A stretch of DNA of 64,000 nucleotides from Candidatus Latescibacterota bacterium (GCA_965237675.1 OZ250150.1:1408001-1472000); one strand, 5' to 3'. Positions 1 through 28,302 are shown, counted from the stretch's first letter. The notes: generated from the sequence alone by a model not told the origin. Numbers and translations: made by a program.

Positions 1-121
1 GATGCTCAGCCAGAGCGGCGGGTGTGGCGTGCGCCGCTGCCGGCGCGCCGAGCAGGCTCGGGAGGAGGATATAGCCGTCGAGCTCGAAGGCCCACCTCTG
101 CTCCTCGGTCATCAGCGCCAT
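1..121 (-). CDS. Phytanoyl-CoA dioxygenase (PhyH)-like protein, N-terminus; runs off the window edge
   Basis: Manual translation MALMTEEQRWAFELDGYILLPSLL matches the PhyH N-terminal pattern (compare 17242 MTDDEKYLFDLTGYLVL). Confidence 0.6.
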   Translation of the reverse strand, partial: MALMTEEQRWAFELDGYILLPSLLGAPAAAHATPAALAEH

Positions 122-168
122 GGACCCGCTCCGTGGACATCGAAGAGGTATTTTTCCGTTTCGGTCAT
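112..168 (-). pseudogene. Collapsed PhyH-like remnant (18 aa)
   Basis: Reads MTETEKYLFDVHG-AGPWR*: a PhyH start followed almost at once by a stop overlapping the next gene. Confidence 0.5.
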
Positions 169-323
169 GAGGCAACCCTTTCTCTCACAGATCGTCGCAT
201 TTGCGATTTGAGTTTGTTAGTGGGATGTGACAATCATCGGAACGAAATGGTTCGGTAAGCCCGCTGTGGCGTTCTCTGTTTGCTTCGTGATATTGATTCA
301 CACCGATGCTCTCTTTTCTATTG

Positions 324-411
324 CCGATAACGTTTTCCGTGCCCCCGAACCGCGAAGCGGTTGCGCGGAGGGCCGAATGGCCCGAAGCCGGGGGCACGGT
401 CGTGTTATGTG
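324..411 (-). mobile_element. attC-like integron recombination site
   Basis: Minus strand ACATAAC...GTTATCG enclosing the stem CCGTGCCCCC/GGGGGCACGG; 328-400 is identical to 4212-4284. Confidence 0.75.
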
Positions 412-529
412 TTGTGCCAGCCGGGGGGCGAGGGCGGCCTTGCCACGGATGGCAAGGCCGCTTTGTCGCTGAAACAGAATTCCCGCTAAATGAATTATTC
501 AGCGGAAATCTTGAAAGAAGAACGAGGGA

Positions 530-700
530 TTATGTCTCCTGTTTCACCGATTCTTCTCTACTTTTCCGCACCAGCTTTTCAGGATGCTCTTTCTGGCGTC
601 TTATGTAATACGCCACCAATTTCTTTGGGTCGTGATCACATTGCTCCGAAATCCTATGACGCACTTCACGAATCCTACGAATGGTCGGATCATCTTTCAT
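530..700 (-). CDS. Putative antitoxin, 56 aa (below ORF-track cutoff)
   Basis: MKDDPTIRRIREVRHRISEQCDHDPKKLVAYY...; start overlaps the end of the PIN gene. Confidence 0.65.
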   Translation of the reverse strand: MKDDPTIRRIREVRHRISEQCDHDPKKLVAYYIRRQKEHPEKLVRKSREESVKQET

Positions 701-1175
701 CTTCAATACCCCCCAGGAGTTCCAGCGGAGTCACCAACGTGGGCACATATAAGCCAAGAATAGTGTTGACTCGCTTGATGTGGGCAAACTTATTCGCGTT
801 AGCCAGATGATTGCAATTCCATGTGAGCAAAAATTCACACTTATGATAAGAGGCTGTAGCAAGATGGAGTGCATCGCCCAGGGGATCATTAGGCATCATC
901 TGGTGTTGGATATATGCTTCTACAATCTCAGCGATTTCTGGTTCAATTGGCAGCAGTGGCAAAGGAGCAACCAGGGCCAATACTCGGTCCTTGTTAGGAT
1001 ACTCTCCTACACTGAGTTCATCGATAACCGCTTCACTGGTGAAAATCTCATAACCCTCACGCCGTTCGTCCCACCATTGGCGTGTCCAAGTCCGCTTTGC
1101 AGCCATCTCGGGTTCTGTACGTGTTTCGTAATAGAAACTGGGAATAGATGTCTCGATGTAGACCTTAGGGATCAT
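690..1175 (-). CDS. PIN-domain (VapC-like) toxin
   Basis: VYIETSIPS, SEAVIDEL, DALHLATA and FLLTWNCNHLAN motifs. Confidence 0.85.
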   Translation of the reverse strand: MIPKVYIETSIPSFYYETRTEPEMAAKRTWTRQWWDERREGYEIFTSEAVIDELSVGEYPNKDRVLALVAPLPLLPIEPEIAEIVEAYIQHQMMPNDPLGDALHLATASYHKCEFLLTWNCNHLANANKFAHIKRVNTILGLYVPTLVTPLELLGGIEDER

Positions 1176-1363
1176 TATATATCATATTGTTTTTAATATG
1201 GTAAAGACGGTTCAATCCTGCTGCGATTGGTCACCTATTGACCTGCTATAAATCTACATATCTTAATCAAGTTCTTCAAGCGAAATTTCCGCTACTGAAG
1301 AACGTAGTGAGATTCTCTTGGGCGGCCAGGACGGCCGCCTGCTTTTGGAGGAAGGCTGGCATT

Positions 1364-1453
1364 GCACATAACGTTCTTGGGCCTTGCGAACCCGCGTCAG
1401 CGGGTTGTGTCGAAGCCCGACAGGGCTGAGCCGCAAGCGGACCTGTTAGCAGC
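1364..1453 (-). mobile_element. attC-like site
   Basis: Minus strand GCTGCTAAC...GTTATGTG, ~90-bp imperfect palindrome between genes; each core matches the far end of the adjacent cassette. Confidence 0.75.
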
Positions 1454-1583
1454 CGGTGCTTCGGAGAAGGCATTCGACTGCCCCTCTACTCCAGGAATTG
1501 ACCTCTGTGCCTTTGTGGTGCGCCTTACGTTCCGCTTCCGGGAAGGACGTTGGCATAACAGCCTGGCCAGGTCGATCATTGAA

Positions 1584-3857
1584 TCAGAACTCGGCGGCAA
1601 TCATCGCGTACTGTCCGATGTTCGTTAATGTGGTTTCCAAGTGGTTTCCGTCGAACGTGACCTCCAGGTCATCTCCCGTGCAAACGTCCCATACGCGACG
1701 AGGAGTGCCCCGCTCCGTGAGCCACCAGCGCAGGTTCACTTCGGGTATCGTGGTCACATAGTCAAACTGTGGGCTGAAGCGCGGCCAGATCTCCGGCAGA
1801 TGCTCGACGCGCTCGCCGGTGTGATTGATCAGAAACAACACTTGGCTTCCTGGTTTTTCATTCGGAATCATCACGAGTTGGTTCGGGCCATCGGTCATCA
1901 GAGGCCGGCCCTCCGGGTAGAGCCAATCCACCACGGCGCCTAGAAGATCGCGGACCACCAGCAGGCGATATTCAAAATGAAGCTCCTCCACCGGCGCGGC
2001 CAGATAGACGACGCGCCCCTTGCCGACCGACCGGCAGGTGACGGCGGGACACAGAGCGTCGTCCGCGCGCCCACCGAAGACGATGTTCGCCACCACGTCG
2101 GTTCCCGGCCGCGCTTGGACGAACTCGAACCGATTGAGCGGCCACAGCTCATGCGAGCACCCCTCGGCCAGCCATTGACCCGGAACGCAGCGACCGTACG
2201 TGTCGAACGTCCCCGCGGCCCAGAGGTGTTGTTCGTAATCAGCGAATTGGTCGGGGTTCGGGTCCACGCGGTCCACGCCCAGAAGGTCCGCCAAGGCGAA
2301 GTTATCGCGCATCTCCTCAGGCTCGGCACCGTACAGGCTCGTCCGGTACGTTGCCAGGAGCCGCCCGCCCACCTTCACATATTCCGTGATGCCCTCGACT
2401 TCCTCCCGCGTGAGATGGCCGACGTTGGGCAGAAACAGAACAGGATACTTTGCCAACGCCGCTGGATCGGAGAGAACCCGCTCCTCGATCACCGATGTCG
2501 GCAAATGGTTGGCCAGCATGGTCGAGAAAGCCCCGCGACGGCAGGATTGCTGCGGGGGCGTGCGCACGAGATAGCCCGCCTCGGAGAGCGGGGCCTCGAG
2601 TTCCCCCGGACGGTCGGCGAGGTCCTGCTTGAACTGGCCGATGACATCGCGCGGACGATCGCGCATCACCAGGGGCTCGGCGCGGAACCGCACCCGCTCG
2701 AGCATCTCATACACCCGCACCGGCAAAACAAATGGAATAGCAACAAACGGTGACGGGTGGAGATCTTCGAAGAGTGATTCATTCGTCTCCAGGATCTCAA
2801 GGAGCTCCGCCAGCTCACGATTGGCTTTGTGGGGAGGCGACAGCCAAAGGTTCACGCCGCACGCCACCAGGACGCCCCCTCCGGAAGCAAAGCTGGCTGC
2901 CGCTTCCTCGACGAGTTCCATGCCGAAGCACTGCGTCCGAGACCAGCCCGTCAAGGCGCCGACGTATTGCCACATAGCCCAACCCGACGACTCGGCCAGA
3001 CTGGCCGCCTCGAGCCGATGAAGGAAGTCGCCCCCGGCCTCGTAGAGAAATCCATTGTGCACCTCCACGATCCTGCGTTCGGGCCAGTTGCCCACACCCA
3101 GGCCGTGCGTCAGCACCGGGATGTCCTTCTTCTTTCGCGTCGCGGCGGCGAATTCGAGAAAGACATCGCCGACGATCCTGCCGTACTGCAGGCTCCACTC
3201 TTCCAGCATCTCCTGGTCTTCCCGAGGCAGGCTGTGCGGATCGGGTGCATACGGCATTGGGCAGCCGAATTGCCTCTCGAACTTCTCGAGGCAATAGTCG
3301 CAGTAGCACAAGGGCGACTGCGGGGTGTGGTGCGAATGGTAAGGACAGGCAGAATCGGTGTAGATCGCGTCGACGTCGTGGTCCACCACTTGTGCGATGA
3401 AAGCGCAGATGGCCTCTCGGTACGGTGTGTTGAAGCAGACGTGCCGGTGAAATCCGCCGCCGTGGTGCCTCAGGACAGGAGCGTCGCCTTCGGGGCTGGG
3501 GCGGTACATCCACTCCGGATGATGGATCAGCATGTTGTCTTCGGGAATAATGTGCCCCACGGGAATGTACCCGATGACGCGCACGTCCCGCGCATGGGCC
3601 TCGGCGATGGTCTCGGCGAGCAGGTCGCGCTCACTTAATTGAGGGTGCGGGGGAAAGAACTCATTGGGGAAGACCGCCCATTTGCCCGCGCTGCCGAACC
3701 AAATGGCGTTGGCGTGGTATTTCCGCACGACATCGACGAGCTGCTTCGCGTCAAAGTCGATGTCGGGCCAGAAGGGCGGGTGGTATTGCTCTATCTGAAA
3801 GGTGCGCGCCCGCCGTACCCACTCGTGACTTGGCTTGATCATAGCGATGACCTCCAA
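1584..3857 (-). CDS. Glycoside hydrolase-like protein (TIM barrel plus beta-galactosidase trimerisation/GATase-like domain)
   Basis: DLLAETIAEAHARDVRVIGY, VCFNTPYRE, CYCDYC, YPVLFLPN, GGRLLAT and GKGRVVYLA motifs; 757 aa. Confidence 0.75.
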   Translation of the reverse strand: MEVIAMIKPSHEWVRRARTFQIEQYHPPFWPDIDFDAKQLVDVVRKYHANAIWFGSAGKWAVFPNEFFPPHPQLSERDLLAETIAEAHARDVRVIGYIPVGHIIPEDNMLIHHPEWMYRPSPEGDAPVLRHHGGGFHRHVCFNTPYREAICAFIAQVVDHDVDAIYTDSACPYHSHHTPQSPLCYCDYCLEKFERQFGCPMPYAPDPHSLPREDQEMLEEWSLQYGRIVGDVFLEFAAATRKKKDIPVLTHGLGVGNWPERRIVEVHNGFLYEAGGDFLHRLEAASLAESSGWAMWQYVGALTGWSRTQCFGMELVEEAAASFASGGGVLVACGVNLWLSPPHKANRELAELLEILETNESLFEDLHPSPFVAIPFVLPVRVYEMLERVRFRAEPLVMRDRPRDVIGQFKQDLADRPGELEAPLSEAGYLVRTPPQQSCRRGAFSTMLANHLPTSVIEERVLSDPAALAKYPVLFLPNVGHLTREEVEGITEYVKVGGRLLATYRTSLYGAEPEEMRDNFALADLLGVDRVDPNPDQFADYEQHLWAAGTFDTYGRCVPGQWLAEGCSHELWPLNRFEFVQARPGTDVVANIVFGGRADDALCPAVTCRSVGKGRVVYLAAPVEELHFEYRLLVVRDLLGAVVDWLYPEGRPLMTDGPNQLVMIPNEKPGSQVLFLINHTGERVEHLPEIWPRFSPQFDYVTTIPEVNLRWWLTERGTPRRVWDVCTGDDLEVTFDGNHLETTLTNIGQYAMIAAEF

Positions 3858-4206
3858 AATCTGTACCGTCTTTTTTTACCCGCAGAGCCCGCGGAGAACG
3901 CAGAGAACGGCCTTCCATGATTCACGGCCGCTCATCATGATCGAGAAGCCGAGAAATATCAGGCTGAACCCCAGCCAGCAGCCCAAGCTCGGCTGTCGGC
4001 ACCAACTCAGGACCCGAGCTAACAGGAGCAACGTCGAGAATGGACGAAGAACGCTTTGGTTGCCGGCGGAAGGTCCGCTCCCACGTTTAACCCGAGGACC
4101 TCAACGACCCTCCCCGCTGTCATGAGAATGGGAAGCAGGAGTGCAGGTAACGCCGCAACCAGAGCAGCACGGAGGTCATTCGCAGTCATTGGTTTCGACT
4201 GGCATG

Positions 4207-4293
4207 GCTGCTAACGTTTTCCGTGCCCCCGAACCGCGAAGCGGTTGCGCGGAGGGCCGAATGGCCCGAAGCCGGGGGCACGGTGTTAGAGGC
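4207..4293 (-). mobile_element. attC-like site
   Basis: Minus strand GCCTCTAAC...GTTAGCAGC; 73 bp identical to the site at 324-411. Confidence 0.8.
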
Positions 4294-4323
4294 TGTGTGG
4301 CAGGGGTGGGGTTGAGTGGTTGC

Positions 4324-4614
4324 TCAAGCGCTTAACGACCGAGCCACGGTTTCTGGGTTTTCCGAAGCAATCTTGAGTAGGGCCCGAGCAGGACCCTCGG
4401 GACGGCGCCGTCCCTGTTCCCAATTTTGCAAAGTAGAGACGCTGACGCCAATCATCAGGGCGAATTCAGATTGCGACTTATCCAGTTTCTTTCGGATCAT
4501 CCTGATATCGGCGGGATCCATCTGGGTCGTGCGCCCTGGCTTCAACTTGCCGCGCTTGATCGCGCCAGCTTGCTTGACGCTGGCTACAAGTTGGTCAAAG
4601 TCACGCTCATTCAT
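4324..4614 (-). CDS. HTH (HigA/NadS-like) antitoxin
   Basis: SQSEFALMIGVSVSTLQNWEQGRRRPEGPARALL; overlaps the toxin stop. Confidence 0.88.
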   Translation of the reverse strand: MNERDFDQLVASVKQAGAIKRGKLKPGRTTQMDPADIRMIRKKLDKSQSEFALMIGVSVSTLQNWEQGRRRPEGPARALLKIASENPETVARSLSA

Positions 4615-4928
4615 GCCAGATACTCCCTTACGAGTTTGCTAAGCAGATTGCACTGTCGAGAGGTGAGATCTTCCTGCCGGCTCTTCCGATACACCCAGAG
4701 CATATAGACAACCTCGGCCGGCTTGTCCCAATAGTAGATCACACGAAGACCGCCCCGTTTGCCAGCGTGCGGCAATTTCCATCTCAGTTTTCGCAATCCA
4801 CCTGTATGCGGAATCAGCTCTCCTGATTCTGGCCGGAATAGGAGCGCCAGCTGTATTGCCCGGTAGTCCTCATCCGATAGTAGGGTCAAGATCTCCTTTG
4901 TGAAGATTGGCGTCTCGACGAAGATCAT
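4611..4928 (-). CDS. RelE/HigB-family toxin
   Basis: MIFVETPIF, TGGLRKLRW and GKRGGLRVIYY motifs; start taken at ATG 4928. Confidence 0.88.
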   Translation of the reverse strand: MIFVETPIFTKEILTLLSDEDYRAIQLALLFRPESGELIPHTGGLRKLRWKLPHAGKRGGLRVIYYWDKPAEVVYMLWVYRKSRQEDLTSRQCNLLSKLVREYLA

Positions 4929-4934
4929 ACGCAC

Positions 4935-4963
4935 AATATACGCCAATGACGTATAGCACGCAA
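4935..4963 (-). promoter_or_regulatory. Sigma70-like promoter with palindromic operator for the TA operon
   Basis: TTGCGT-17 bp-TATATT, with palindrome TATACG-N7-CGTATA (4937-4955); -10 box lies 6 nt before the ATG. Confidence 0.6.
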
Positions 4964-4986
4964 GGTCTTTACTTTGGCCACATGGC

Positions 4987-5056
4987 CTCTAACTACGGTA
5001 TTACCGAACAGTTACGGTAACGCGTACCTAATGCGAAGATCTGCGAACATTCGGGA
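4987..5056 (-). repeat. attI-like motif, copy 1
   Basis: Top strand TAACTACGGTATTACCGAACAGTTACGGTAA; GTT core on the minus strand directly before a cassette; related copies at 7542, 10006, 14970. Confidence 0.5.
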
Positions 5057-5374
5057 ACATGTTGCTTCGAAGCGTGTAGTCCGAACATGCTCAGGAATGC
5101 ATCCTATAGTCTTCACGATTGTACCAGAGTCTGATCTCGCGCTTAATTTCCCTGCAGCATATATATGAGGGTTTGTTGCCCTCGTTGGAAGAATTAAGTC
5201 GCGGTCGCGAGATATGTAGAAACGTGGGCGTATGAATTATACCTGCAAAGGAAGGCGACGGCAAGAGCGTGGGCGACTTCAGATCCACAAACTCATATGA
5301 TGTCGGCCGCAGAGCCGCTCCCTGAGCCGTCGAGCAGCAGCAGGCACGCCGTGCAGGTTGAAGTCATCGCAAAT

Positions 5375-6084
5375 TCAGGCTCGTGGCGTTAGGCGAGACT
5401 TGTACGTCGGTTCCCAGTGTTTCTCGCCCGGCCACTCCCGGTACTGGATGTCCGTTCCGAAGGCACTCAACGCGGCAAACAGCTCCTGTTCTGTCGGGAA
5501 ATTCTTCACGATGTCGTACTCCTGTCCATCCGAGAGAACCGCCGCTCGATGGTATCGCCGTTGGAATCCTCGTGACGTTGCGCGGCCATTCCGTCAACTC
5601 TGGGAACGTCATATTCGAGCTGGTCCGAAAACAGCACCAGCGCTCCGGGAATCAACCTGCGGTGAAGCGATTGCAGAAACTGCCGCACGCGGGACCTGGG
5701 AATGTGCGACCACCACCAGACAGCGAACGCTGCCGTGAAGGCGCCCGCCTCGGGGCCGAGGGAATACGCGTCTGCAAGGCGGAATTTCACATGCGGGAAA
5801 TGTTCACACCTCGATTGAGCCCGGGAGATCATTTCAGGATTGACGTCAATTCCGACAACCGACTTTGCAGTTTCCGCAAGGACCTCCGTCCAGTATCCGG
5901 TTCCACACGCAATTTCGAGGACGTCGTGGCCGAGAAAGAGCTGCTGATATCTTCTCTTTTTCGCAACGCGGAGAGTTTCTGCGTCGTGAGTCAGATACCC
6001 CGCGCTAACGTCGTATTCCGGAGCGCGCGCGGCATAGTATCGGGCCGTTTCTTCGGATGTCCCATCGCTGGAATGAGGCGTCAT
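5375..6084 (-). pseudogene. Class I SAM methyltransferase, frameshifted near 5540
   Basis: VLEIACGTGYWT motif; the C-terminus LSDGQEYDIVKNFPTEQEL continues in another frame; ends at GCCTAAC (5388-5394), an attC R''-like core. Confidence 0.7.
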
Positions 6085-6091
6085 CTCGACC

Positions 6092-6517
6092 CTATTCGCA
6101 GTTCTGTCTCTCGAAATTCCGAACAACCATTCCCACGCACTCCGAGAAACCCTGCTTGACGTAGAATTCAGCCACATCCCGGTCGCACACCAGGTCTACC
6201 ATATAAAGATGCCCGACCTGATCGAGCATTCGCCTGACAAGTTCGGCGCCAATGCCCATACCCTGGTATTCCGGGAGTACGCTGAGGTGAGGAATATATG
6301 CACAGGACACACCGTCCGAGATGGCGGAAATCCAACCGACGACCTGTCCTTCCGGCGAAATAGCCAGAACATGGAAATCGCTGCCCTGTAAAATTCGGAG
6401 ATGCGCCTCCGGGGAGGGAGGATCAGGCCAGTTTTCGAAGTGACCCTCAAGATTGTCGGGCCGGATTCCCTCAAGGGTACTCTGGTATCTGATTGACATC
6501 GGGTCGTGTGCGTTCAT
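6092..6517 (-). CDS. GNAT acetyltransferase
   Basis: LSVLPEYQGMGIGAELV and FYVKQGF motifs. Confidence 0.88.
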   Translation of the reverse strand: MNAHDPMSIRYQSTLEGIRPDNLEGHFENWPDPPSPEAHLRILQGSDFHVLAISPEGQVVGWISAISDGVSCAYIPHLSVLPEYQGMGIGAELVRRMLDQVGHLYMVDLVCDRDVAEFYVKQGFSECVGMVVRNFERQNCE

Positions 6518-6565
6518 GTGGATTTTTCACTGGCCATGTGGTCTGGCGTCTTGCCGCGCCTCAGC

Positions 6566-6635
6566 CGCGAATGCAGATGGGCGAAGGGGGTCTGCCCGAA
6601 GGCACATCCCGTCGGGTCGCTCGCCTGTGTTGGTC
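6566..6635 (-). mobile_element. Degenerate attC-like site
   Basis: Minus strand GACCAAC...ATTCGCG with imperfect arms and an internal hairpin, between two cassette-type genes. Confidence 0.3.
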
Positions 6636-6692
6636 TCCGCAACTGAAAACGCGCTGCGCAGTCAACGGGACGTGGCTCGTTCCGCCGTATGA

Positions 6693-7457
6693 TCAGGCAG
6701 CTGTCAGTGCGGGTCTTCTGGCGACCGCCACAAGACGATTGGATTCCCTGCCGTATTCCTCCCCCTCGAAACTCCCGTAGAGTTTCACATCGCCAAATCC
6801 AACGGCAAGCAGTCTGTCCTTCAGTTCCTGGCCGGAATATACGGTGTGGTGAAACTCGAAGGTGCGGACCTCCGGACCCTTGATGATGATCCATTCATTT
6901 CTGATGCGAGACCATTCGTCGAAGATCTCGTGGCGCTGCACCATCAGCGTACCGTCTTCAAGCTTCTCGGACGTCGTCGGCTGGAAAATCCTCGCCAGCT
7001 TCTCCTTGCCGATGATATCCATCACAAGACGTCCACCGGGCTTCAGACTGCCAAAAATCCTCCTCAACACCCTGACGTCCTCGTCCTTGTCATCAAAGTA
7101 GCCAAAGGAGGTGTTGAGGTTGAGAACAAGATCGAAGGATGCGGGGCGCTCAAACCCCCGCATGTCTTTCTCGACCCATTCGATGTCCGGATTCCATTGC
7201 GCCGCCCTTTCCGCCCCCTTGCCCAGCAGAAACGGGCTCCTGTCCACCGCTGTGACCTGAAACCCGCGCTGCGCCAAGGGGATCGCAAAGCGGCCGGGGC
7301 CGCAACACAGGTCGAGGACCGACCCTGAGTCCACACCGACCAGATTGAGGATGTCGTCAAGGTGCTTCTCGGCAGCCTCAAACCTTGCCTTAGAAAAAAG
7401 AAACGGATAAATCGCGGTCCAGAAGGACTCGTCTTCAAACCATTCCAAATGCCTCAC
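6693..7457 (-). CDS. Class I SAM methyltransferase
   Basis: VLDLCCGPGRFA, SFGYF and LKPGGRLVMD motifs. Confidence 0.9.
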   Translation of the reverse strand: MRHLEWFEDESFWTAIYPFLFSKARFEAAEKHLDDILNLVGVDSGSVLDLCCGPGRFAIPLAQRGFQVTAVDRSPFLLGKGAERAAQWNPDIEWVEKDMRGFERPASFDLVLNLNTSFGYFDDKDEDVRVLRRIFGSLKPGGRLVMDIIGKEKLARIFQPTTSEKLEDGTLMVQRHEIFDEWSRIRNEWIIIKGPEVRTFEFHHTVYSGQELKDRLLAVGFGDVKLYGSFEGEEYGRESNRLVAVARRPALTAA

Positions 7458-7538
7458 CTCCTGGACTTACCAACTCAATACAATTCGACTTCCCGTTTAG
7501 CGGGCGTGTCCTCACAGTTCTCAGGAAACGAATACTTT

Positions 7539-7600
7539 GCGTAACTTTGGTTTTGCCAAACAGGGACGGAAATACGGACCGGACCGGAAAACGCCCGAAC
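7539..7600 (-). repeat. attI-like motif, diverged copy 2
   Basis: TAACTTTGGTTTTGCCAAACAGGGACGGAAATACGGACCGGACCGGAAA aligns without gaps to the 14970 copy. Confidence 0.4.
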
Positions 7601-7630
7601 GCTCGCGACAGGTCACTCCTGGCCCGATCA

Positions 7631-7867
7631 TCAAGCTCGTAGATGCGCTTTCCATCCGACCACAACAATTTCACGTTCCGCCTCGGCAGGCACAGCGCGA
7701 AGTCCATCCGCTCGCCGATCCTCAAGGATGAGCGATATCGCATCCCGTAGACTCATAAGGGCTTCATCCTTAGACTTTCCCTGGCCATTGGCACCCGGAA
7801 TCTCAGGGCAATAGGCAATGATCCATTCGTTGTCATGTTCGATCACTGCGGTGAATTCGTTTCTCAT
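7631..7867 (-). CDS. hicB: HicB-like antitoxin; partner HicA apparently eroded
   Basis: FTAVIEHDNEWIIAYCPEIPGANGQGKSKDEAL motif. Confidence 0.8.
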   Translation of the reverse strand: MRNEFTAVIEHDNEWIIAYCPEIPGANGQGKSKDEALMSLRDAISLILEDRRADGLRAVPAEAEREIVVVGWKAHLRA

Positions 7868-7971
7868 ATTCGACCCTCCTGGAATCCTGATTCAAGGCTC
7901 ACTGCTCAAATCAATATATCCTCTTCCATTGGGAAAATACAGAAAAGATATCTGTTTCATCCCAGCCGATG

Positions 7972-8032
7972 TCATTTAACGTTCTCCGGTTTGCGAACCC
8001 AGAGCTCGGCCGCGGAGCCTACGCGCTGAGCC
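7972..8032 (-). mobile_element. Truncated attC-like site
   Basis: Shares GGCTCAGC...GGGTTCGCAA...AGAACGTTA with the attC at 1364-1453; the R'' arm is replaced by the end of the ankyrin gene. Confidence 0.45.
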
Positions 8033-9782
8033 GTTCCTGATTTTGCGATCTGGCACCTGCTTGCCGAAGCATCTCGGCGATTTCCATATGCCCACGTTTT
8101 TCAGCCCAGGCTAAAGGCGTTGCCCATTTCGGTGTGTTGGAAATATTCGCGGAAGCCCCACGTTCAAGCAAAAAAGCAACCACATCTTTGTGGCCCGCGC
8201 GGACATGCCAGCCCAGTGGCGTCGAACACAGTTCGTCATCTTGAACATTCAAATCAGCCATATAATCGAGCAACAATTCTGCCATCTCAATCATCACGGC
8301 TTCACTATTGTTCCATACTTCCTCACGTTCATGATAGCTTCCCCCGATCCAATGCAATAAGGTTGAGTTTTCCGGCCCCCGGATGTTAACATCAACACCA
8401 TAATCCAAAATCATCCGTACGGTTTCTCCGGCGCCGCTTTGCAGCCCCCAGCGTAAACACTCAAACCAATAATCCGCATCAAAATCGGGTTCACAGCGCA
8501 AGCACATTCTTACGACATTGACATCTTCAAAGCTCAATCCCGAACGCATGGTTTGTCGAACCACGCCTTCACTACGATCCTGTGGCAAATAGCCGGCTTC
8601 CCGAACAGCCGTGGCACGATCCAGTAACTCACCTATCACGCAATATTGTCTTGCCTTCACGTATGTCCACATCATCGGGTGCCCACCATTTACATAGATG
8701 CGATCCGCCAAACCCTGGTTGCCAGACAGCAACGCCTCGTCAGCTACGCCCAATTCCGAATCATTCGCGGGTGCATCCGTGCGCGCACCGCGATCCATTA
8801 ACCGTTCGGCCACATCAAAGTGTTTGCGTTCCAGTGCATAAATCAATGCACCGCAAATATGGACCACCTTACCACTGCGTTCACATTTTGTATCCACGTC
8901 GGCTCCAAAATCCAAGAGCAAATCTACGACCTCCAAATGCCCCTCGCGCGCCGCCATCGCCAGGGGATAGGTCGATGCATTTTTGTTATTCGCACGCCCG
9001 CACTGATAATTCACCAGACTGGCGTCCGCTTCCAGCATCTTCTTGACACCTTCCAGATCACCAAGAGCACTGGCTACCCAGATGTCGTAATTTGCCCCAT
9101 GTTCAAGCAACAATTCAGCCATCTTTCGATACGCCGGCTTATCACGGTTGGGGTCGTTGCCTTTAAATAGAGCGCGGTGGATGGGTAATTCATTTTCGGC
9201 GTTCTTGATATTCACATCAGCGCCAGCGGTGAGCAAGTCGGTCACAAGTTTAAACTGCATATGCCACACCGCATAATGAAGGGCTGTATTGCCGGCTGTA
9301 TCGCATTCGTTTATGATTGCCGGTTCCTTTTCCAATATGAAGCGCACTTTCTCAAGCTCCTGCATCCGGGCCGCATCACAGAATTCCACCCCACGAGATG
9401 TTGTCCCATGTTGTGTGTTCAACCACGCGTCAATTAAAGCGACGACCTCCGTATGCCCTCGGTCCCGTGCCAATGTCAACGGTTGCGACGCCTCCCGGTT
9501 AGGCCAAATCCCAACGGTCGGACCGGCGCCCGCTTCGAGCAGTATCTTCACTACCTCTGCATGACCTTCCCGAGCGGCATAGTGAATGGGGCGTCGTCTG
9601 TGTTGCTGATGGTTTTTGGCAGTTGCCAAATCCGGATTCTTCTTCAACAGCATCTTTACCCTTTCCACGTCTCCCGCTTGCGCAGCGTGGCATATTCTGA
9701 TAGCATCTGCAAACACATCGTCTCTTGAAGGGGCTTCATTTCTAAAAGTCTTCTTTGCCATTATTGGAAACCGTTCATTCAA
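8019..9782 (-). CDS. Ankyrin-repeat protein
   Basis: Multiple PIHYAAREGH, TALHYA, PLAMAAREGH and TPLAWA repeats; lower GC than the catabolic cluster; start may be 9761. Confidence 0.92.
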   Translation of the reverse strand: MNERFPIMAKKTFRNEAPSRDDVFADAIRICHAAQAGDVERVKMLLKKNPDLATAKNHQQHRRRPIHYAAREGHAEVVKILLEAGAGPTVGIWPNREASQPLTLARDRGHTEVVALIDAWLNTQHGTTSRGVEFCDAARMQELEKVRFILEKEPAIINECDTAGNTALHYAVWHMQFKLVTDLLTAGADVNIKNAENELPIHRALFKGNDPNRDKPAYRKMAELLLEHGANYDIWVASALGDLEGVKKMLEADASLVNYQCGRANNKNASTYPLAMAAREGHLEVVDLLLDFGADVDTKCERSGKVVHICGALIYALERKHFDVAERLMDRGARTDAPANDSELGVADEALLSGNQGLADRIYVNGGHPMMWTYVKARQYCVIGELLDRATAVREAGYLPQDRSEGVVRQTMRSGLSFEDVNVVRMCLRCEPDFDADYWFECLRWGLQSGAGETVRMILDYGVDVNIRGPENSTLLHWIGGSYHEREEVWNNSEAVMIEMAELLLDYMADLNVQDDELCSTPLGWHVRAGHKDVVAFLLERGASANISNTPKWATPLAWAEKRGHMEIAEMLRQAGARSQNQERLSA

Positions 9783-10002
9783 ATGTCGGCGTGCTGAACG
9801 ACGCAGGCCGTATTGGCAAACCCAATCCGAAATCTCAACCTCGCAAACCTCTTACTACCAAAATTACGCCGATCGTCTCACATTGAAATAGGCAAGACAA
9901 AAGAGCCATGCAGATACTTTTCGAAAGGTCAATTGGAAGAGAAGAGGAGGGTGGGAAAAGGGATTTGGTTTGGGAGTTTCTTTAGGGGATGGCGGAAATT
10001 GC

Positions 10003-10072
10003 GTGTAACTACGGTATTACCGACAGGTTACGGTAAAACGCATCAGGTCCGAACATCTCCCAACGTTTGGAA
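10003..10072 (-). repeat. attI-like motif, copy 3
   Basis: TAACTACGGTATTACCGACAGGTTACGGTAA; similarity to copy 1 extends ~65 bp. Confidence 0.5.
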
Positions 10073-10253
10073 TGGTCAGAATGCGCACCCCTTCTGTCAT
10101 AATAATGTGCTTACCCTGGCGTGCAATGTGAAAACCGGCTTTCTCCAATGCACGTACGGAATCCAAACCTGCCATATCGGACACCTCGTCTAGTTTTTCG
10201 GAGAGCGTCGCGCTAACAAATAACCACGGCAGTTCTCGGAAAACCGCTCGCCA

Positions 10254-10440
10254 GTGTTCTGTCCCGGAAATTGGTTGCCAAAATTCGGCCGATCAGAAGC
10301 AGCAATAACAGCTATCAGCTCTCAGCCGTCAGCTTGAACCAAAAACCCAATCAGTTGACATCAGCGCCGTGAAGAGACGAGACCAGAACGGGCGCCGCGA
10401 GACGGGATGAATCGGCGGCCGAATGGTGAGATATTTTCGG
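10254..10440. mobile_element. MITE (family A), damaged copy with an internal heptamer-repeat segment
   Basis: AGTGTTCTGTCCCGGAAAT and GCCGCGAGACGGGATGAATCGGCGG shared with 28303-28471; CAGCTAT-CAGCTCT-CAGCCGT at 10310-10334. Confidence 0.65.
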
Positions 10441-11286
10441 CTAATTGGCCACGAAGTGCCGGTAGAGCGGTTTCACTTCCTCCGGAAGCCCCTCGTACAC
10501 GTCGCGGCGCAGGGGCTCCATCTCGTAGTTCTTCCCGCCGGTCTCCACCACCATCATTTCGTGCTCCGGCGTGCCTACGTGCGTCGGATTCAGGTTCAGC
10601 CACCAGGGAGCGTAGCGCACGATCAGGGCCACCCGGGGGCTGCCGCTCCGGTTGGGGGCAACCGCGTGCCACTGCCGGCTGTCGTAGAGCAGCACCGAAC
10701 CCGCCCTGCCCTCGGTGTTGATCTCGGCCGGCTGGGGTGCCTCGTTGTCGAAGCCGGGGAGGTCTCCCGTCGCCGGATTGTGGTCCTTCCGGTGCGTGCC
10801 CGGCAACAGCAGCGTCCCTCCGTTGGAGGCGGAGAAATCGGTCAGCATCCACAGCGACGACGCGTGCATCATCACGTCCGGGTAGGGGGCGGCGACATTG
10901 GAGGCGTTCGTCTGGTTGAACGGCCAGTCCGCGTGCCAGTAGCCGCGCTCGTTCCCCGGGTGGTTCACCACGGCGTCGGTGCAGGAGATCCGCAGCCAGG
11001 GACCGAAGAAGATCTCGAGGGCCCCGACGATCCGCCGGTCGGCCAGGTACGGCGCGAACGACTGGTCGTGGTTGACCGCCTGCTTGAGCACGCGGACGCC
11101 GCGGGCTCCGACGCGGTGGCCCCTGGCTCGAGTCGCCCTTTCCCTGGCCTGGTTGGCGGCGTCGTTGGCGGCGTGCGCCCGCACGACGCGCTCGCGGATC
11201 CTGCCCACTTCCCCTGAGGGGATGACGTCCTCGACGATGCAGTAGCCGTTTTCCCTGATATGGTGCGCTATTTCAGCTGGTTCCAT
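10441..11286 (-). CDS. Phytanoyl-CoA dioxygenase (PhyH) family
   Basis: WHADW, NGGTLLLPGTH and WHAVAPN Fe(II)/2OG motifs. Confidence 0.9.
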   Translation of the reverse strand: MEPAEIAHHIRENGYCIVEDVIPSGEVGRIRERVVRAHAANDAANQARERATRARGHRVGARGVRVLKQAVNHDQSFAPYLADRRIVGALEIFFGPWLRISCTDAVVNHPGNERGYWHADWPFNQTNASNVAAPYPDVMMHASSLWMLTDFSASNGGTLLLPGTHRKDHNPATGDLPGFDNEAPQPAEINTEGRAGSVLLYDSRQWHAVAPNRSGSPRVALIVRYAPWWLNLNPTHVGTPEHEMMVVETGGKNYEMEPLRRDVYEGLPEEVKPLYRHFVAN

Positions 11287-11433
11287 GTCGTTGTCCTTTG
11301 CCCAGGTGCCGGTTCGGTTGTCCGGACCGGAAGGAATGGCAGGGAGCATTTCCCTGGCAAGGTGGATGGTCCAGGGTGACCGTCATCGGTACTTCCCGGA
11401 TCGCCTTGGTCCACCTGCATATGTACTAATGTA

Positions 11434-12504
11434 CTAACCGTAGACCGCCTGTATCATGGCATTGATGTAGCCGAAGCAGTACGCGTAGGACTGATAGGAG
11501 CGCATCGGATCGTCGTCAGTCCACGGAACGTGGTCCGGATCGATGCCGTAACAGTAGCCCGTGTCCTTCAGGGCCCTTAATACCCGGTGGAAGTCCATAT
11601 CTCCTTCATCGGGCAGCGCCTCGCGGAAGCTGTAGCGCCCCCCAAGGAGGTTACGATAGTGAACCAGGAAGATCGTGTTACGGCTGCCAAAGTATTCGAT
11701 GGTGGGGTAGATTTCAGTGGCCGGATCTTCCAGCCCTTCAGCGATGGAGCCGACGCAGAAGTTCCAACCGTGATACGGACTGCGCTGAATCTCGATGAAA
11801 CGCTTCATGCCCTCAAAGTCGTTGAGGACTTTGTCAACGCCCATATAACCGGGGGGTGTGGCAGGGTCTTCCTGGGAATTGCCCATCCGAACCTTGAATT
11901 CTTCTGCCACCGGAATCATGCGTTCGAGCAGATAATCAATTCGTTCCCAGTGCATGTCGGCCGTGACGCGTCCGGCATCAGTCAGCCTGGCCTGTTCTTC
12001 TGCCGGGATCTTGTCCAGGCGGAACGCGGTGTGGTAGAAGCCGCCGCGACCTTCCTCCGGTTCCGTACGGTCGATGGGAAGGACGCAAGTGTTATAGCGC
12101 AGAGAATCGATGCCGGCGCGCGCAGCGGTCCGGATCATTTCGCATACGAGGTCGATTTCCCGGTCGCGCTCCGGGCTTTTGCCGAAATAGATGATGTTGG
12201 GAAATCTCTCGTATATGGGCAGCGAGCTCATATCCAGTGTTATCCCGAAGGCCTCGTGGCGCTCTCGTACCTGGACCAGTTCCTCATGGTCCCAGCCCCT
12301 TCCGGGGTGGAACGGAAAGACAACGGCCTTGTGACGCACGCCGCAGCGCTGCAGAAAACGCAACTCCGCATCGGTTGACCCGAAACTCTGTGTGCGCACG
12401 TACATACGCCCGCCGTTCGACGATGACTGTGATGCGCCTCCGGTGGCGGAAGCGGCCGCCTCACCGGCTGCGAGGCCTTTTTCAAATGGATCGGATTTCG
12501 TCAT
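11434..12504 (-). CDS. Mannonate dehydratase (UxuA)-like protein
   Basis: WERIDYLLERMIPVAEEFKVRM, NFCVGS, IFLVHYRN, DEGDMD and PDHVP motifs. Confidence 0.8.
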   Translation of the reverse strand: MTKSDPFEKGLAAGEAAASATGGASQSSSNGGRMYVRTQSFGSTDAELRFLQRCGVRHKAVVFPFHPGRGWDHEELVQVRERHEAFGITLDMSSLPIYERFPNIIYFGKSPERDREIDLVCEMIRTAARAGIDSLRYNTCVLPIDRTEPEEGRGGFYHTAFRLDKIPAEEQARLTDAGRVTADMHWERIDYLLERMIPVAEEFKVRMGNSQEDPATPPGYMGVDKVLNDFEGMKRFIEIQRSPYHGWNFCVGSIAEGLEDPATEIYPTIEYFGSRNTIFLVHYRNLLGGRYSFREALPDEGDMDFHRVLRALKDTGYCYGIDPDHVPWTDDDPMRSYQSYAYCFGYINAMIQAVYG

Positions 12505-12603
12505 TTGGTTCCTTTCGTTGGTACGGCGCCGATGAAGGAATACAGAAAAAAAAGCCCGGAAGCTGGATGAGCCGCCTCCGAAACCCTTTCGTTACACTGG
12601 ACG

Positions 12604-12843
12604 TCATTGCCGAGATGGATCAGCTGGAAAAACATCATCAAATGCAATCGTTTCGCTCTCAGCAGTCTCTCTTCTTGCTGCTTCGGCCAGACGGTCCCAC
12701 TGCTCATCGGCTGTGGCATTAAAACGTGCTGTCCAAATATGCTCATCTTTCAGGTCGGCCAGAATACGTGTGGCAATGGCATCCTGCTTGTCTGGCGGCA
12801 GCTTCTGAATTTCTGAAAATGCCTGCTGAAGCAAGTCGGTCAT
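12604..12843 (-). CDS. Small putative antitoxin followed by a truncated toxin start
   Basis: MTDLLQQAFSEIQKLPPDKQDAIA; an overlapping ATG gives MTSSVTKGFRRRL and then loses toxin-like character. Confidence 0.6.
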   Translation of the reverse strand: MTDLLQQAFSEIQKLPPDKQDAIATRILADLKDEHIWTARFNATADEQWDRLAEAARRETAESETIAFDDVFPADPSRQ

Positions 12844-12994
12844 TTCTGCAGCTCCTTGTGTGAGTGCGCAGTTTTCTGAAAATATAACTCCAAATGGCGA
12901 TATTGGTTGGATTGACTTCTGCTCATTCGCTCTTTCGATTGCTCACTTATTTACGGGGGACCGCTGTCTCATTAATATAGGCACAGAGGGTCCC

Positions 12995-13339
12995 TCATTT
13001 CAGTGCATCCGTCTCCAAGACATCGGCGAGTGTTTCAGTCGCCCACTGATTGATACTCTTTCCGCTGACTTCAGCCGCCATGGCAATGGCTGCGTGGACC
13101 TCTGGTGGGATGCGCAACATCAGATTGCCGGAATAGGGCTTTTGAGGGGACCTGTTGAGCTTTTCACAGGTTTCAAGATAGTCGTCAACCGATTCTCCAA
13201 AAGCATCACGCAGTTCTTCGACCGATTCGCCGTGAAAGCCTACCACATCATTGATCCCTGCAATATGACCAATGAAGCAGCCGTCTTCATGGCTATAGTC
13301 AATTCGAGCCGCGTATCCTCTATGGGTCATTGTGTTCAT
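12995..13339 (-). CDS. hicB: HicB-family antitoxin with C-terminal RHH; HicA reduced to a few codons
   Basis: GYAARIDYS, VVGFHGESVEEL, PYSGNLMLRIPPEVH and GKSINQW motifs; upstream QQAGVAP* remnant. Confidence 0.88.
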   Translation of the reverse strand: MNTMTHRGYAARIDYSHEDGCFIGHIAGINDVVGFHGESVEELRDAFGESVDDYLETCEKLNRSPQKPYSGNLMLRIPPEVHAAIAMAAEVSGKSINQWATETLADVLETDALK

Positions 13340-13566
13340 GGGGCTACTCCTGCCTGTTGTCTGCAGATCGCTCTCGCTGTCTTGCCCATTGTGTCTCTGC
13401 GTCTTTGTGTGAGCCGGCTTTTTCGTGACGACGCGAGGCCCGGGGGTCTCCCCTGCGAAATCCAGGCATCCGCGAATTGATATCGCAAGGCCATATCGAT
13501 GTCCGGCGGGGTGCGGCGTGGTCCTCTTCCCTCTCCCGTTTACCTTCTCACTGCTTCTTGTGCTAC

Positions 13567-13797
13567 CCCTACGCGCCTTTTTCGTGTCGGCCGAGAAGGT
13601 GCTGGGCGATGAATCGCTGGCTGTAGACGACGGGACCCACGTATCGGACCTGGACGGAGTTGTTCCGCGACCCGCAATGCCAGATCTGGTTGTGGAACAT
13701 GTAGACGTCGCCCGGTTTCGCGACCAGGGATACCGGCTGCCGGCCTTCAAAGGTCGGAATCTTGCGGTCGTTCGGGTTTCTGCCGGCGTAGTGGCAA
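13567..13797 (-). pseudogene. PhyH 3' fragment, paralog of 15095-15919, internally deleted
   Basis: Strong nucleotide similarity to ~15100-15395 with ~69 bp missing. Confidence 0.8.
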
Positions 13798-13822
13798 CTG
13801 AGTGTTATGGTAAGCTGGACTA

Positions 13823-13996
13823 TCAGCCCGTGCTCGTGTCTATTGATGGTTCCTTATGATCATCCGGTTTTTGTCCCGATCTTTCTTCAATATACTCAAT
13901 TTGTTGTTGAGGAGTCATCCCTTGCATCTCTTCGCTCATTTGATCACGAAGAGTCCGCATGAGTTGAACCGCATTAGTCTGCTGTTTCGTCTTCAT
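13823..13996 (-). CDS. Putative antitoxin, 57 aa
   Basis: MKTKQQTNAVQLMRTLRDQMSEEMQGMT...; GGAGG RBS; follows a PIN remnant. Confidence 0.55.
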   Translation of the reverse strand: MKTKQQTNAVQLMRTLRDQMSEEMQGMTPQQQIEYIEERSGQKPDDHKEPSIDTSTG

Positions 13997-14147
13997 AATA
14001 CACCTCCTGAGGAGAGCGAATCTCCAAGGGGTGGGTGTCTTAAAAGGGCTTGCACGGCATCCGGGGCCTGGCGCAGTTCAGCAAGGGTAACGTCCGATAG
14101 TACGGCTGTCAATCGACCCGCTTGAAAGTCGGCAAAAAGACGTCCAG
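13990..14147 (-). pseudogene. PIN toxin remnant
   Basis: SGRLFADFQAGRLTAVLSDVTLAELRQAPDAVQALL joined out of frame to PLEIRSPQEV. Confidence 0.55.
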
Positions 14148-14205
14148 AATGTGGTCGCAGCCCCGAAAGGCGCGAAGCGCCTGGAGCACAAACATGCTGT
14201 TAAGC
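14143..14205 (-). mobile_element. attC-like site (R' degenerate)
   Basis: Minus strand GCTTAAC...ATTCTGG with hairpin AGGCGC-GAA-GCGCCT. Confidence 0.5.
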
Positions 14206-14334
14206 GAAGTCACAGTCTTGGGCGGTTGAGCTGCTTTTCATATTCGACTTGAACTATTCGGCAAATTACTGTAGTTTTTTTCAATCAATGAATAATTCTG
14301 ACAGTGGCTGGTGTTTGCCATAGGAGATTTATGG

Positions 14335-14619
14335 ATGCTTAAAATCTCGTCTGCAAAAGCATTACCTGATTATAAGATTTGGATTCAATACTCAGATGGC
14401 GTTGAGGGTGAAGTAGATTTATCCCATCTTGTTGGCAATGGTGTATTCTCCGCTTGGAAAGATGCAAATGTGTTTCAGGCTTTCCGGGTTGAAAACGGCA
14501 GATCTATTACTTGGACAGACGAAATCGATCTGTGTGCAGATTCGCTCTATTTGGAGATGACAGGAAAAGCTCCCGAGGATATTTTCCCTGCGTTGAGGAT
14601 GGAAGATGTGAATGCCTGA
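14335..14619 (+). CDS. DUF2442-family protein
   Basis: YKIWIQYSDGVEGEVDLS and ITWTDEIDLCADSLY motifs. Confidence 0.85.
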   Translation: MLKISSAKALPDYKIWIQYSDGVEGEVDLSHLVGNGVFSAWKDANVFQAFRVENGRSITWTDEIDLCADSLYLEMTGKAPEDIFPALRMEDVNA

Positions 14620-14872
14620 GATATGTCGGTTTTATGGAATTATTATCAAGATGTACGTGAATGATCATCCACCCCCGCATTTCCATGCGGAATACGCAGA
14701 ATATGCGGCTGTGATCAATATTGGGACATTGGCCGTCATCGCAGGAAATCTCCCTTCACGGGCGCTGGGTTTGACAGTCGAATGGGCATCGTTACACCAA
14801 GACGAAATGAGAAATCTATGGGAGCGAGCACGAAATCATGAATCCTTGGGCAAATTAGATCCTCTGCAATAG
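14612..14872 (+). CDS. DUF4160-family protein
   Basis: MPEICRFYGIIIKMY and DHPPPHFHAEY motifs. Confidence 0.9.
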   Translation: MPEICRFYGIIIKMYVNDHPPPHFHAEYAEYAAVINIGTLAVIAGNLPSRALGLTVEWASLHQDEMRNLWERARNHESLGKLDPLQ

Positions 14873-14966
14873 AGATCCGATCATAACCCGGTACTTCTAC
14901 CGCAATGACCAAAGCTAAAGCTTCCGGTTGTTGCGGTTTTTGTCTGGGGGGGTAGACTGTGATTTT

Positions 14967-15032
14967 GCTTAACTACGGTATTAACGAACAGGTACGGCAA
15001 TACGGACCGGAACGGAAATTCCCGATCAGTCG
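14967..15032 (-). repeat. attI-like motif, copy 4
   Basis: TAACTACGGTATTAACGAACAGGTACGGCAA abutting the DUF2442/DUF4160 cassette end. Confidence 0.5.
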
Positions 15033-15094
15033 GCATGTTGAATTACGCCGACCAGTGAAAGCGTTGGCAGGAGCCCGGGCGACTCAAAGTGCGC

Positions 15095-15919
15095 TTAACC
15101 GTACGCGCCCTTTTCGTGTCGGCCCAGGAGGCGCTGAAGGCGGGGTCTGGCGTCTTCCCAGACGTGGTCGGGCATGCGGTAGTCGATGAACGGATAGAGG
15201 CGCTGGGCGATCATCCGCTGGCTGTAGACAATGGAACCCACGTACCGGACCTGGTCGGAGTTGTTTCGGGACCCGCGGTGCCAGACCTGGTTGTGGAACA
15301 TGTAGACATCGCCCGGTTTCGCGACAAGGGACACCGGCTCTCGGCCTTCGAAGGTCGGATTTTCGCGGTCGTTCGGGTTTCTGCCGGCGAAGTGGCTGCC
15401 CGGAATGACCTGGGTGACGCCGTATTCGATGGAATCGGCCCTGCTGAGCGGGATCATCACGTTGATCACGAAACAGGGGATGGGGATATCCGGATTGTGG
15501 CGCGGGACGCCATCGGGAAGCGGGAACTGGATCTTATCGTCCAGGTGCCACCCGCCGCCCTGGCCGGGTTCGTAACGCAGGGCGTTCTGAGACATCATGT
15601 GGCAATCTTCGCCCAGGATGGCCTCCGCCAGGCTGACGATGGGCTCGCGTTCGATAAGGTCCCGGTAGTTGCGGTCATACTCGTACATGCGCATCATGCT
15701 GATTCCGCGGATGTGATCGCCCGCTTCGTCCGCCTGAATCCGGGGGTCGTTCCACTTGCGTTCCATGCCGTCCCTGAGCGCGTCCACTTCCTCGGGGGTG
15801 AGCACGTTTTCCAGGAAACAATAGCCGTCCCGGTTGAACTGTTCCACGATCTTCCGGGTGGTTTCTTCGTCGAGGGCCTGCGCGTTTTTTTCGATAACGC
15901 TGCTGTCTCGGGTATGCAT
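15095..15919 (-). CDS. PhyH-family dioxygenase
   Basis: FNRDGYC, WHLDD, TQVIPGSH and VWHRG motifs. Confidence 0.9.
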   Translation of the reverse strand: MHTRDSSVIEKNAQALDEETTRKIVEQFNRDGYCFLENVLTPEEVDALRDGMERKWNDPRIQADEAGDHIRGISMMRMYEYDRNYRDLIEREPIVSLAEAILGEDCHMMSQNALRYEPGQGGGWHLDDKIQFPLPDGVPRHNPDIPIPCFVINVMIPLSRADSIEYGVTQVIPGSHFAGRNPNDRENPTFEGREPVSLVAKPGDVYMFHNQVWHRGSRNNSDQVRYVGSIVYSQRMIAQRLYPFIDYRMPDHVWEDARPRLQRLLGRHEKGAYG

Positions 15920-16141
15920 CGGGATCTCCTCAATTGTGTGGTCTGGCAAAAAATATAGGGATCTGCCGGTGAGGAGACAATTGATTTGAAGGGAGGCGCA
16001 CAACGCCATTTTTCTTTGACTTCCGGGGGAAACTGTGCCATCATGCCATCGTTGCCGCCCGTCGCGGGGTCGGAGTGCTGAATGAACGGCATTCGCCGTA
16101 GATCCGCGACGCTTGCGTCCACATTCTATATGGAGGAATCC

Positions 16142-18027: not shown

Positions 18028-18149
18028 AACTGTTGTGTGCAAGCGAAACATCGAAACAAAGGCTTGAAAGGGTGGAGCGGACATTCTTGTCTGCTCATAG
18101 ACATCAATTCGGAACCTCGGAATCCTGTGTCCGGGAACGCGGGTGGACC

Positions 18150-23385: not shown

Positions 23386-23436
23386 TAAAACATCCTGTGA
23401 CCTGAGTTCGACGAAGGGTAACGGAATAGGGGACGT

Positions 23437-23533
23437 TAGCAGTCCGTTGATAAAGTCGCTCTGCAGGCGAGGCCGAGTCATTCGGCCACAAGGGCCGGAC
23501 GTAGCCCGGATGGACTTTTTCAACGGGCTGTTA
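23437..23533. mobile_element. MITE (family C), internally deleted copy
   Basis: TIRs TAGCAGTCCGTTGATAAAGTC / GACTTTTTCAACGGGCTGTTA; longer inverted copy at 57347-57511. Confidence 0.8.
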
Positions 23534-23583
23534 GGGCGGAGGTGGAATTTCAACCTCGAAAGGACAGTTGAGTTGGGGGAATT

Positions 23584-26413: not shown

Positions 26414-26436
26414 CGGATGGTACTTGCGCCCCTAGT

Positions 26437-28301: not shown

Positions 28302-28302
28302 C

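Follow-up and report, generated by a model that had tools for sequence, protein, structure and literature searches.

We describe a non-coding block, here called the motif, that occurs four times in a 64,000-nt stretch of the genome of a Candidatus Latescibacterota bacterium (OZ250150.1:1408001-1472000). The whole stretch is referred to as the window, and window coordinates are counted from its first letter. The four copies lie at one end of the window (1-16000), where genes are carried mostly on the minus strand. An earlier reading made from the sequence alone (the sequence-only reading) had described them as dispersed attI-like docking sites with promoters, each heading its own mini-array of gene cassettes supplied through a distant integrase.

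On the minus strand, from right to left, the locus begins with a PhyH gene that is conserved in the genus, followed by copy 4, a 4.8-kb stretch, copy 3, an ankyrin cassette with a weak attC, a hicB-like unit, copy 2, a methyltransferase-GNAT-methyltransferase block and copy 1. Beyond copy 1 are a RelE/XRE cassette, a glycosyl-hydrolase-like cassette and a PIN cassette, each with its attC (Table 1). The 4.8-kb stretch contains DUF4160/DUF2442 on the opposite strand, a duplicated PhyH 3′ fragment, HicB, a UxuA-like gene, a second PhyH gene, a miniature inverted-repeat transposable element (MITE) and a truncated hicA-like open reading frame (ORF; HicA_toxin, 24.6 bits, below cut-off). The hicB-like unit (7984-7545) starts right after the attC at 7967-8052. 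Copies 2 and 1 occupy the attC position, at the 3′ ends of units, and in the observed order motif copies therefore alternate with attCs as unit boundaries. The idea that each copy heads its own mini-array did not hold: a clear attC array is headed by copy 1 only, and copy 3 heads one cassette.

Table 1. Motif copies, attC sites and cassettes in the window
Feature	Position	Strand	Remarks
Motif copy 1	4990..5107	-	orphan attI-like site; G|TTA at 4993-4990; heads RelE/XRE cassette and attC array to its left
Motif copy 2	7542..7652	-	most diverged; G|TTA at 7545-7542; closes hicB-like unit 7984-7545
Motif copy 3	10006..10116	-	G|TTA at 10009-10006; fused upstream to truncated hicA-like ORF; ankyrin cassette next
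Motif copy 4	14970..15045	-	5′-truncated, about 75 nt; G|TTA at 14973-14970; about 50 nt (15046-15094) downstream of PhyH gene
attC closing RelE/XRE toxin-antitoxin cassette	4202..4295	-	covariance model 88.5 bits
attC closing 757-aa glycosyl-hydrolase-like cassette	1359..1455	-	covariance model 75.4 bits
attC closing PIN-domain cassette	318..414	-	covariance model 82 bits
Weak attC overlapping 3′ end of ankyrin gene	7967..8052	-	covariance model 17.3 bits, E 0.014
RelE/XRE cassette, first after copy 1	4296..4989	-	RelE-like toxin 4611-4946; XRE/MqsA-like antitoxin 4324-4614
Glycosyl-hydrolase-like cassette	1456..4201	-	also directly after motif at C1:4757696
Unit between copies 2 and 1	5108..7541	-	methyltransferase, GNAT, methyltransferase; no internal attC; conserved in genus
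Ankyrin-repeat cassette	8053..10005	-	between copy 3 and weak attC

The motif and cassette exchange at its G|TT end

The pattern given in the sequence-only reading, searched with up to three mismatches allowed, was matched on the + strand at 4990, 10006 and 14970 with at most two, where 0.00 matches were expected in shuffled sequences. Alignment, repeat search, nhmmer (E 4.5e-28) and a sequence-only model each detected the fourth copy, a diverged one at 7542. All four reported copies were thus confirmed, and all four are on the + strand. The conserved block extends over 75-118 nt in the window, compared with the 31 nt noted earlier; it is approximately 118 nt long in copy 1, 110 nt in copies 2 and 3, and 75 nt in copy 4. 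Overall the motif is a non-coding block of 75-140 nt, read on the minus strand. A profile of the four copies, run against the 5.6-Mb genome, detected 11 clear copies, all on the + strand, four of them in the window and seven at C1:4.611-4.760 Mb. The sequence-only model gave 13 copies, on a single strand. Copy 1 is 87% identical to C1:4757695-4757821. In another family of the order, whose orthologous genes share no more than 70-80% identity, a block of approximately 85 nt is still matched at E 1e-18. Most copies have the TTACCG/CGGTAA inverted repeat and the TACCGTA direct repeat reported earlier; upstream of G|TT the motif contains two copies of TACCGTA and three of GTTCGG.

On the minus strand its final bases are ...CCGTAG|TTA, and conservation ends exactly there. 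Every window copy ends in G|TTA, as expected from the GTT core that had been proposed. For junction statistics, 64 copies were collected with nhmmer and the 55 with a recognisable end were used. Mean pairwise identity among these was 0.78 over the 40 nt that precede G|TT and 0.33 over the 38 nt that follow it, and G|TTA was read in 50 of them. Cassettes 3′ of the motif start with TTAnnnGCAAT-like sequences, as they do after attCs.

Different cassettes were found joined at this junction. The 757-aa glycosyl-hydrolase-like cassette of the window (1466-4215) recurs at C1:4754960-4757707 with 96.7% identity. Its neighbour at the join is an attC in the window and a motif copy at C1:4757696, and the join is identical (...G|TTAGCAGCCATGCC). 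A 2.45-kb unit comprises DUF4160, DUF2442, a 110-aa ORF, a recombinase gene and the motif; its 5′ neighbour is a motif copy in this genome and, in OZ244744.1, a long attC, with homology running from one G|TTA to the next. At the orthologous copy 1 of congener G014, which has the same upstream flank, three other attC cassettes replace the RelE/XRE cassette, whereas congener G009 carries the RelE/XRE cassette, as in the window. Different cassettes next to orthologous copies, which the sequence-only reading had named as support for its case, are thus found, and they are joined at G|TTA. Judged by comparison, one of the features of an integron is present, a putative attI next to a recombinase gene with cassettes joined at G|TT.

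The hicB unit (7984-7545) and the recombinase unit are each bounded 5′ by G|TT and 3′ by a putative attI-derived site, the organisation of delta-attI-type cassettes. Units of the same type that consist of the motif only are located directly 3′ of an attC at two further loci (L083 and L090).

A separate duplication is seen next to copy 4. The PhyH 3′ end is present twice, at 13564-13795 and 15096-15396, with 88% identity and an internal 69-nt deletion. The homology stops at the stop codon, within ...ACGG|TTAAGC, which could be a secondary GTT crossover site.

Linkage to attC arrays and to a tyrosine recombinase

A consensus fold of 18 diverse motif copies was computed with RNAalifold and yielded no structure (-0.03 kcal/mol, 3 pairs). 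The TTACCG/CGGTAA inverted repeat was not retained by compensatory changes in diverged copies; it recurs as reported, but not as a conserved stem. The local attC family, run as a control, gave -22.5 kcal/mol with 19 pairs, 14 of them with compensatory changes. With no conserved hairpin the motif is therefore not an attC, as the sequence-only reading had held.

The attCs were located by iterated nhmmer and a covariance model, which is clade-specific. They are R''/R'-core hairpins in one orientation, as in an integron array. The genome contains 27 (E <=0.001). Of these, 26 make up two clusters on the minus strand (1.4056-1.4123 Mb and 4.6088-4.7531 Mb); both clusters coincide with motif-bearing regions, on the same strand. 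Four attCs lie in the window and two more to the left of it. With at least two attCs and no IntI nearby, the array has the form of a cluster of attC sites lacking an integron integrase (CALIN).

No recombinase remnant was found in the window by tblastn, and the earlier statement that no intI follows any copy holds there; it fails for the genome, where a recombinase lies beside copies. One near-complete recombinase and three remnants are directly 5′ of motif copies. The near-complete tyrosine recombinase gene (C1:4757838-4758836, minus strand) ends 19 nt before a motif copy, C-terminal fragments abut the copies at 4731775 and 4760139, and a small remnant abuts the copy at 4611071. Among records labelled Latescibacterota or Gemmatimonadota, a search started from the recombinase gave 13 loci. 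In 11 of them a motif copy, co-oriented with the match, sits where the match ends or just past it, with attCs further downstream in most. The sequence-only reading had proposed a profile scan of this genome and its relatives for a copy beside an intI gene; copies beside an IntI-like recombinase gene or its match were found in this genome and at those 11 loci.

In a survey started from the motif, comprising sequence-only-model matches at E <=1e-10 outside this genome and further copies at the same loci (52 copies), co-oriented attCs were found downstream of 39 copies, 35 of them within 3 kb, and anti-oriented attCs at none of the loci. attCs were also present upstream of 17 copies, which are therefore internal to arrays. 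A recombinase remnant was adjacent to 11. In this genome and four other assemblies the array has a conserved head, consisting of a syntenic gene for a 248-aa protein, the recombinase gene (whole or variously truncated) and the motif. A sedentary chromosomal integron with a co-oriented integrase has this layout. Such an arrangement, integrase and cassettes pointing the same way, is called a 'reverse integron' (PMC7691350), and here the putative attI is 3′ of the recombinase gene.

Among more distant relatives, all three family members in genome G017, which belongs to another genus, are followed by co-oriented attCs (45-50% identity of the family members). Alignment of the DNA downstream of the distant homologues in G017 and G016 revealed no shared attI-like block, and IS3-like and IS91-like sequences intervene. 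No attCs were detected beside homologues from other phyla (L013, L014, L019, L024-L029) with the clade-specific model, a result that is uninformative either way.

The closest solved relative of the recombinase is VchIntIA (2a3v, E 2.8e-43), and the next is archaeal XerA (5hxy); these two are also the best fold matches. The match to VchIntIA is in two pieces, with only 27 residues opposite VchIntIA residues 171-239. TIGR02249 scored 213-214 bits against a cut-off of 265, with model positions 175-234 skipped, and alignment with the canonical IntI of G017 left 45 gap columns at the IntI-specific region. A domain of approximately 35 residues near patch III distinguishes IntI, according to Cury et al. 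(PMC4889954), and the recombinase lacks it. NF040815 matched the 376-aa form at 222.7 bits (cut-off 220). Full-length family members are approximately 370 aa long and carry an extra N-terminal domain of approximately 70-95 residues, with a predicted beta-beta-alpha-beta-beta-alpha-beta fold at residues 12-71 (block-mean predicted local distance difference test score >=90). For this domain Pfam gave only sub-threshold HARP matches, and the ESM Atlas only unnamed clusters, under 0.9.

Neither this genome nor any of the 14 congeners searched yielded a canonical IntI above cut-off. Among 31 genomes of the order one was found, in G017 (L056, G017:C1:2484000-2499999), directly upstream of a 314-aa recombinase of the motif-linked family and an IS91-like transposase ORF. 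The local attC model detected no attC within 16 kb of it. The 314-aa recombinase occurs at three places in G017, two of them beside a canonical-IntI match.

A candidate attI-type site and its alternatives

The motif is probably the attI-type site, double-stranded and without a hairpin, of a Latescibacterota chromosomal reverse integron. It would be present in multiplied form, the copies in the window being orphans. The sequence comparisons that point to this are the sharp junction, the swapping of cassettes there, the linkage and polarity with recombinase and attCs, and the lack of a hairpin. We infer in addition that the recombinase would be the catalyst, that the site would be copied by way of a circle, and that the system may be active at the present day.

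In the proposed architecture the recombinase gene would be followed, on the same strand, by approximately 140 nt of conserved non-coding DNA, the G|TTA crossover and co-oriented attC cassettes. As the motif lies 5′ of its own crossover, it cannot be moved by ordinary attI x attC exchange, and a second crossover further upstream would therefore be needed. The upstream DNA in a reverse integron would be the recombinase gene and, beyond it, possibly another attC. Crossover at an upstream G|TT, in an attC or a secondary site, and at the site's own G|TT could release a circle with a working attI-type site, whose cargo would be the DNA between both crossovers, such as the recombinase 3′ end. Re-insertion of this circle at an attC or attI elsewhere in the arrays would produce internal motif copies with varied recombinase fragments, with other genes, or alone. 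Later decay would leave orphans such as the four window copies, which might still receive cassettes if recombinase were supplied in trans. The mechanism predicts recombinase 3′ fragments of varied length at the copies, a unit with the whole recombinase gene, motif-only units after an attC (as at L083 and L090) and co-orientation of all copies within arrays, each of which was observed. Since the window copies have no adjacent integrase, any activity would require one in trans. The distant integrase of the sequence-only reading survives to that extent, but the enzyme is not a canonical IntI and lies upstream of the motif, co-oriented with it.

Several observations weigh against an attI-type site served by this recombinase. 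The IntI region of approximately 35-45 residues that the enzyme lacks is thought to be needed to read folded attCs. Only one copy in this genome retains the catalytic domain whole, and it is missing the first 106 or so family residues; that of G012 is frameshifted, although some frameshifts may be assembly errors, the genomes being long-read metagenome-assembled genomes. An adjacent recombinase is absent from most motif copies and from most motif-bearing genomes, and in G016 recombinase and attCs are, as an exception, convergent. All eight congeners examined keep the larger inter-copy genes collinear, with 82-97% identity, and these genes are therefore not fast-turnover mini-arrays. Copies 2-4 were not found at orthologous places in these eight; at copy 4, orthology in congeners begins at the PhyH stop (15096), and the junctions at copies 2 and 3 look like deletion or replacement in relatives rather than clean excision. 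Copy 1 is at its orthologous place in two of the eight congener loci (G014 and G009), and survey loci L091 and L093 share the flank; G008 and G001 have partial motif copies elsewhere in the block. Finally, no sigma-70-like site was found within the motif. Of the attI/promoter platform that had been proposed, the attI-type behaviour is supported, and for a promoter inside the motif no support was found. The best sigma-70-like site of the region (TTGCCG-17-TATAAT, 5264-5236, minus strand) matches at 10 of 12 positions of a consensus that may not be that of this phylum. It precedes copy 1 by approximately 130 nt, and the stretch around it is conserved both in G014 and at C1:1403593-1403667.

The bounding of the recombinase unit by G|TTA on both sides, and its different array positions in two genomes, would also fit a separate self-mobile integrative element made up of recombinase and motif. 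Such an element would parasitise the attC arrays of a lost or unsampled canonical IntI, with the orphans as insertion scars. The recombinase falls outside IntI by score and domain content, and the wider family includes IS91-linked members. The alternative raised by the sequence-only reading, the end of an element that targets attC cores, is in part borne out by the 2.45-kb unit, which follows either an attC or a motif copy. However, a canonical IntI is found in only one of the 31 related genomes, with no attC near it, whereas the syntenic head of gene, recombinase, motif and attCs is common to five assemblies. Ordinary attC cassettes are joined and turn over at orphan copy 1, and the G017 homologues also head attC arrays. 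We consider such an element unlikely. Still less likely is that an old array, through segmental duplications and deletions, has left the copies as inert relics with site function gone. Copies 2 and 4 are diverged or truncated, flanking genes are conserved, recombinases are decayed and contigs contain no excision joints at the motif (contigs cannot show absence), as relics would have it, but a non-coding block recognisable in another family of the order, a base-exact boundary in 55 copies and variable cassette content after orthologous copies speak against it.

The attC position of the motif at the 3′ end of some units, and the 6-7 bp inverted repeat in many copies, could suggest an unusual attC acting as a folded single-stranded site, or else a structured RNA, terminator or 3′ untranslated region of the recombinase gene. 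The flat consensus fold with its uncompensated repeat argues against all of these, no Rfam family was matched in the window at gathering thresholds, and no terminator-like site was reported at the copies; we regard this reading as very improbable. The end of an insertion sequence (IS) or group II intron, which the sequence-only reading had set down among the outcomes that would overturn it, or of a MITE, is slightly more remote again. The motif is multi-copy and has one sharp end. At its copies there is nevertheless no second conserved end, terminal inverted repeat, target duplication or adjacent transposase, the 5′ limits vary, no intron or other RNA family was matched, and the junction partners are attC-type cassette starts.

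As a candidate attI, the motif is, like attI1-type sites, a putative double-strand site beside an integrase gene, with cassettes inserted at G|TT within a GTTRRRY-like box. Its two TACCGTA and three GTTCGG repeats resemble in kind DR1, DR2, L and R of attI1 (PMC12901181). It differs in lying 3′ of the integrase gene, in having approximately 140 nt conserved instead of 65 bp, and in its number, with up to 13 copies per genome, most of them lacking an integrase. In reverse integrons of the Treponema denticola type the integrases are reported as IntI; by description, the enzyme here is set apart by the missing insert and the extra N-terminal domain. It is distinguished from XerA by its linkage to attC arrays. 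Delta-attI-type cassettes of class 1 and 2 mobile integrons have an attI-derived 3′ site, and IntI1 excises and inserts them; attI remnants as short as 11 nt are described for these clinical mobile integrons (PMC12901181). The units described here have near-full sites of 75-140 nt in sedentary chromosomal arrays, and one includes the recombinase gene itself.

By the IntegronFinder definition the present arrays would be CALINs in an IntI-less genome, and half of all CALINs are reported to be in IntI-less genomes (PMC4889954). The arrays differ from CALINs in their conserved head, with an IntI-like recombinase and an attI-like site. The same paper states that attI sites are known for few integron classes and that no general search is possible yet. 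Among titles and the beginnings of abstracts in the literature outside subscription journals, no account of such a system in Latescibacterota turned up, nor one of attI sites multiplied within chromosomal arrays or of an integrase without the insert at the head of attC arrays. For an uncultured phylum, a putative attI is here defined to the base from comparative data alone. It appears multiplied up to 13-fold in sedentary arrays, as a cassette 3′ site and an extra insertion point, and a recombinase gene is found inside a cassette-like unit. Strongly compensated attC arrays persist genus-wide without a canonical IntI, linked to an IntI-like enzyme that lacks the attC-reading insert, which bears on the origin of CALINs in IntI-less genomes. 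With both substrates and the enzyme defined, that origin becomes directly testable.

It is also possible, although we lean somewhat against it, that the recombinase, a widespread enzyme of approximately 370 aa, related to IntI and XerA, without the I2 insert and with an N-terminal beta-alpha domain, represents a second integron-integrase lineage running self-propagating 'distributed' reverse integrons in Latescibacterota. If so, attI and even the recombinase's own gene would be mobilised as cassettes, and many arrays filed as CALINs in IntI-less genomes would be accounted for.

Strain variants and other repeats

Contigs of four public runs were compared with window 1-16100. Strain variants were found with the junction 9800>10437, as in G008, and with a different neighbour of the hicB unit. 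A 254-nt deletion in the relE-like gene (4661-4914) was present in contigs of two public runs containing this strain, at a depth below that of the intact form. No joint at the motif G|TT was seen in these contigs, which cannot show absence.

The MITE-like repeat of approximately 190 nt is present at 10245-10436 and 28300-28478, and the genome has at least 30 copies of it; that at 10245-10436 is flanked by two TAG copies and lies immediately after the second PhyH stop. A 1.88-kb repeat at 26428-28306, probably an insertion sequence, has four other sites in the genome with 90-99.8% identity. Short repeats at 18040-18140 and 23424-23540 each occur in tens of copies genome-wide. Tandem repeats of 72 nt and repeats of approximately 594 nt at 40016-40891 and 42000-44600 are probably inside large repetitive-protein genes.

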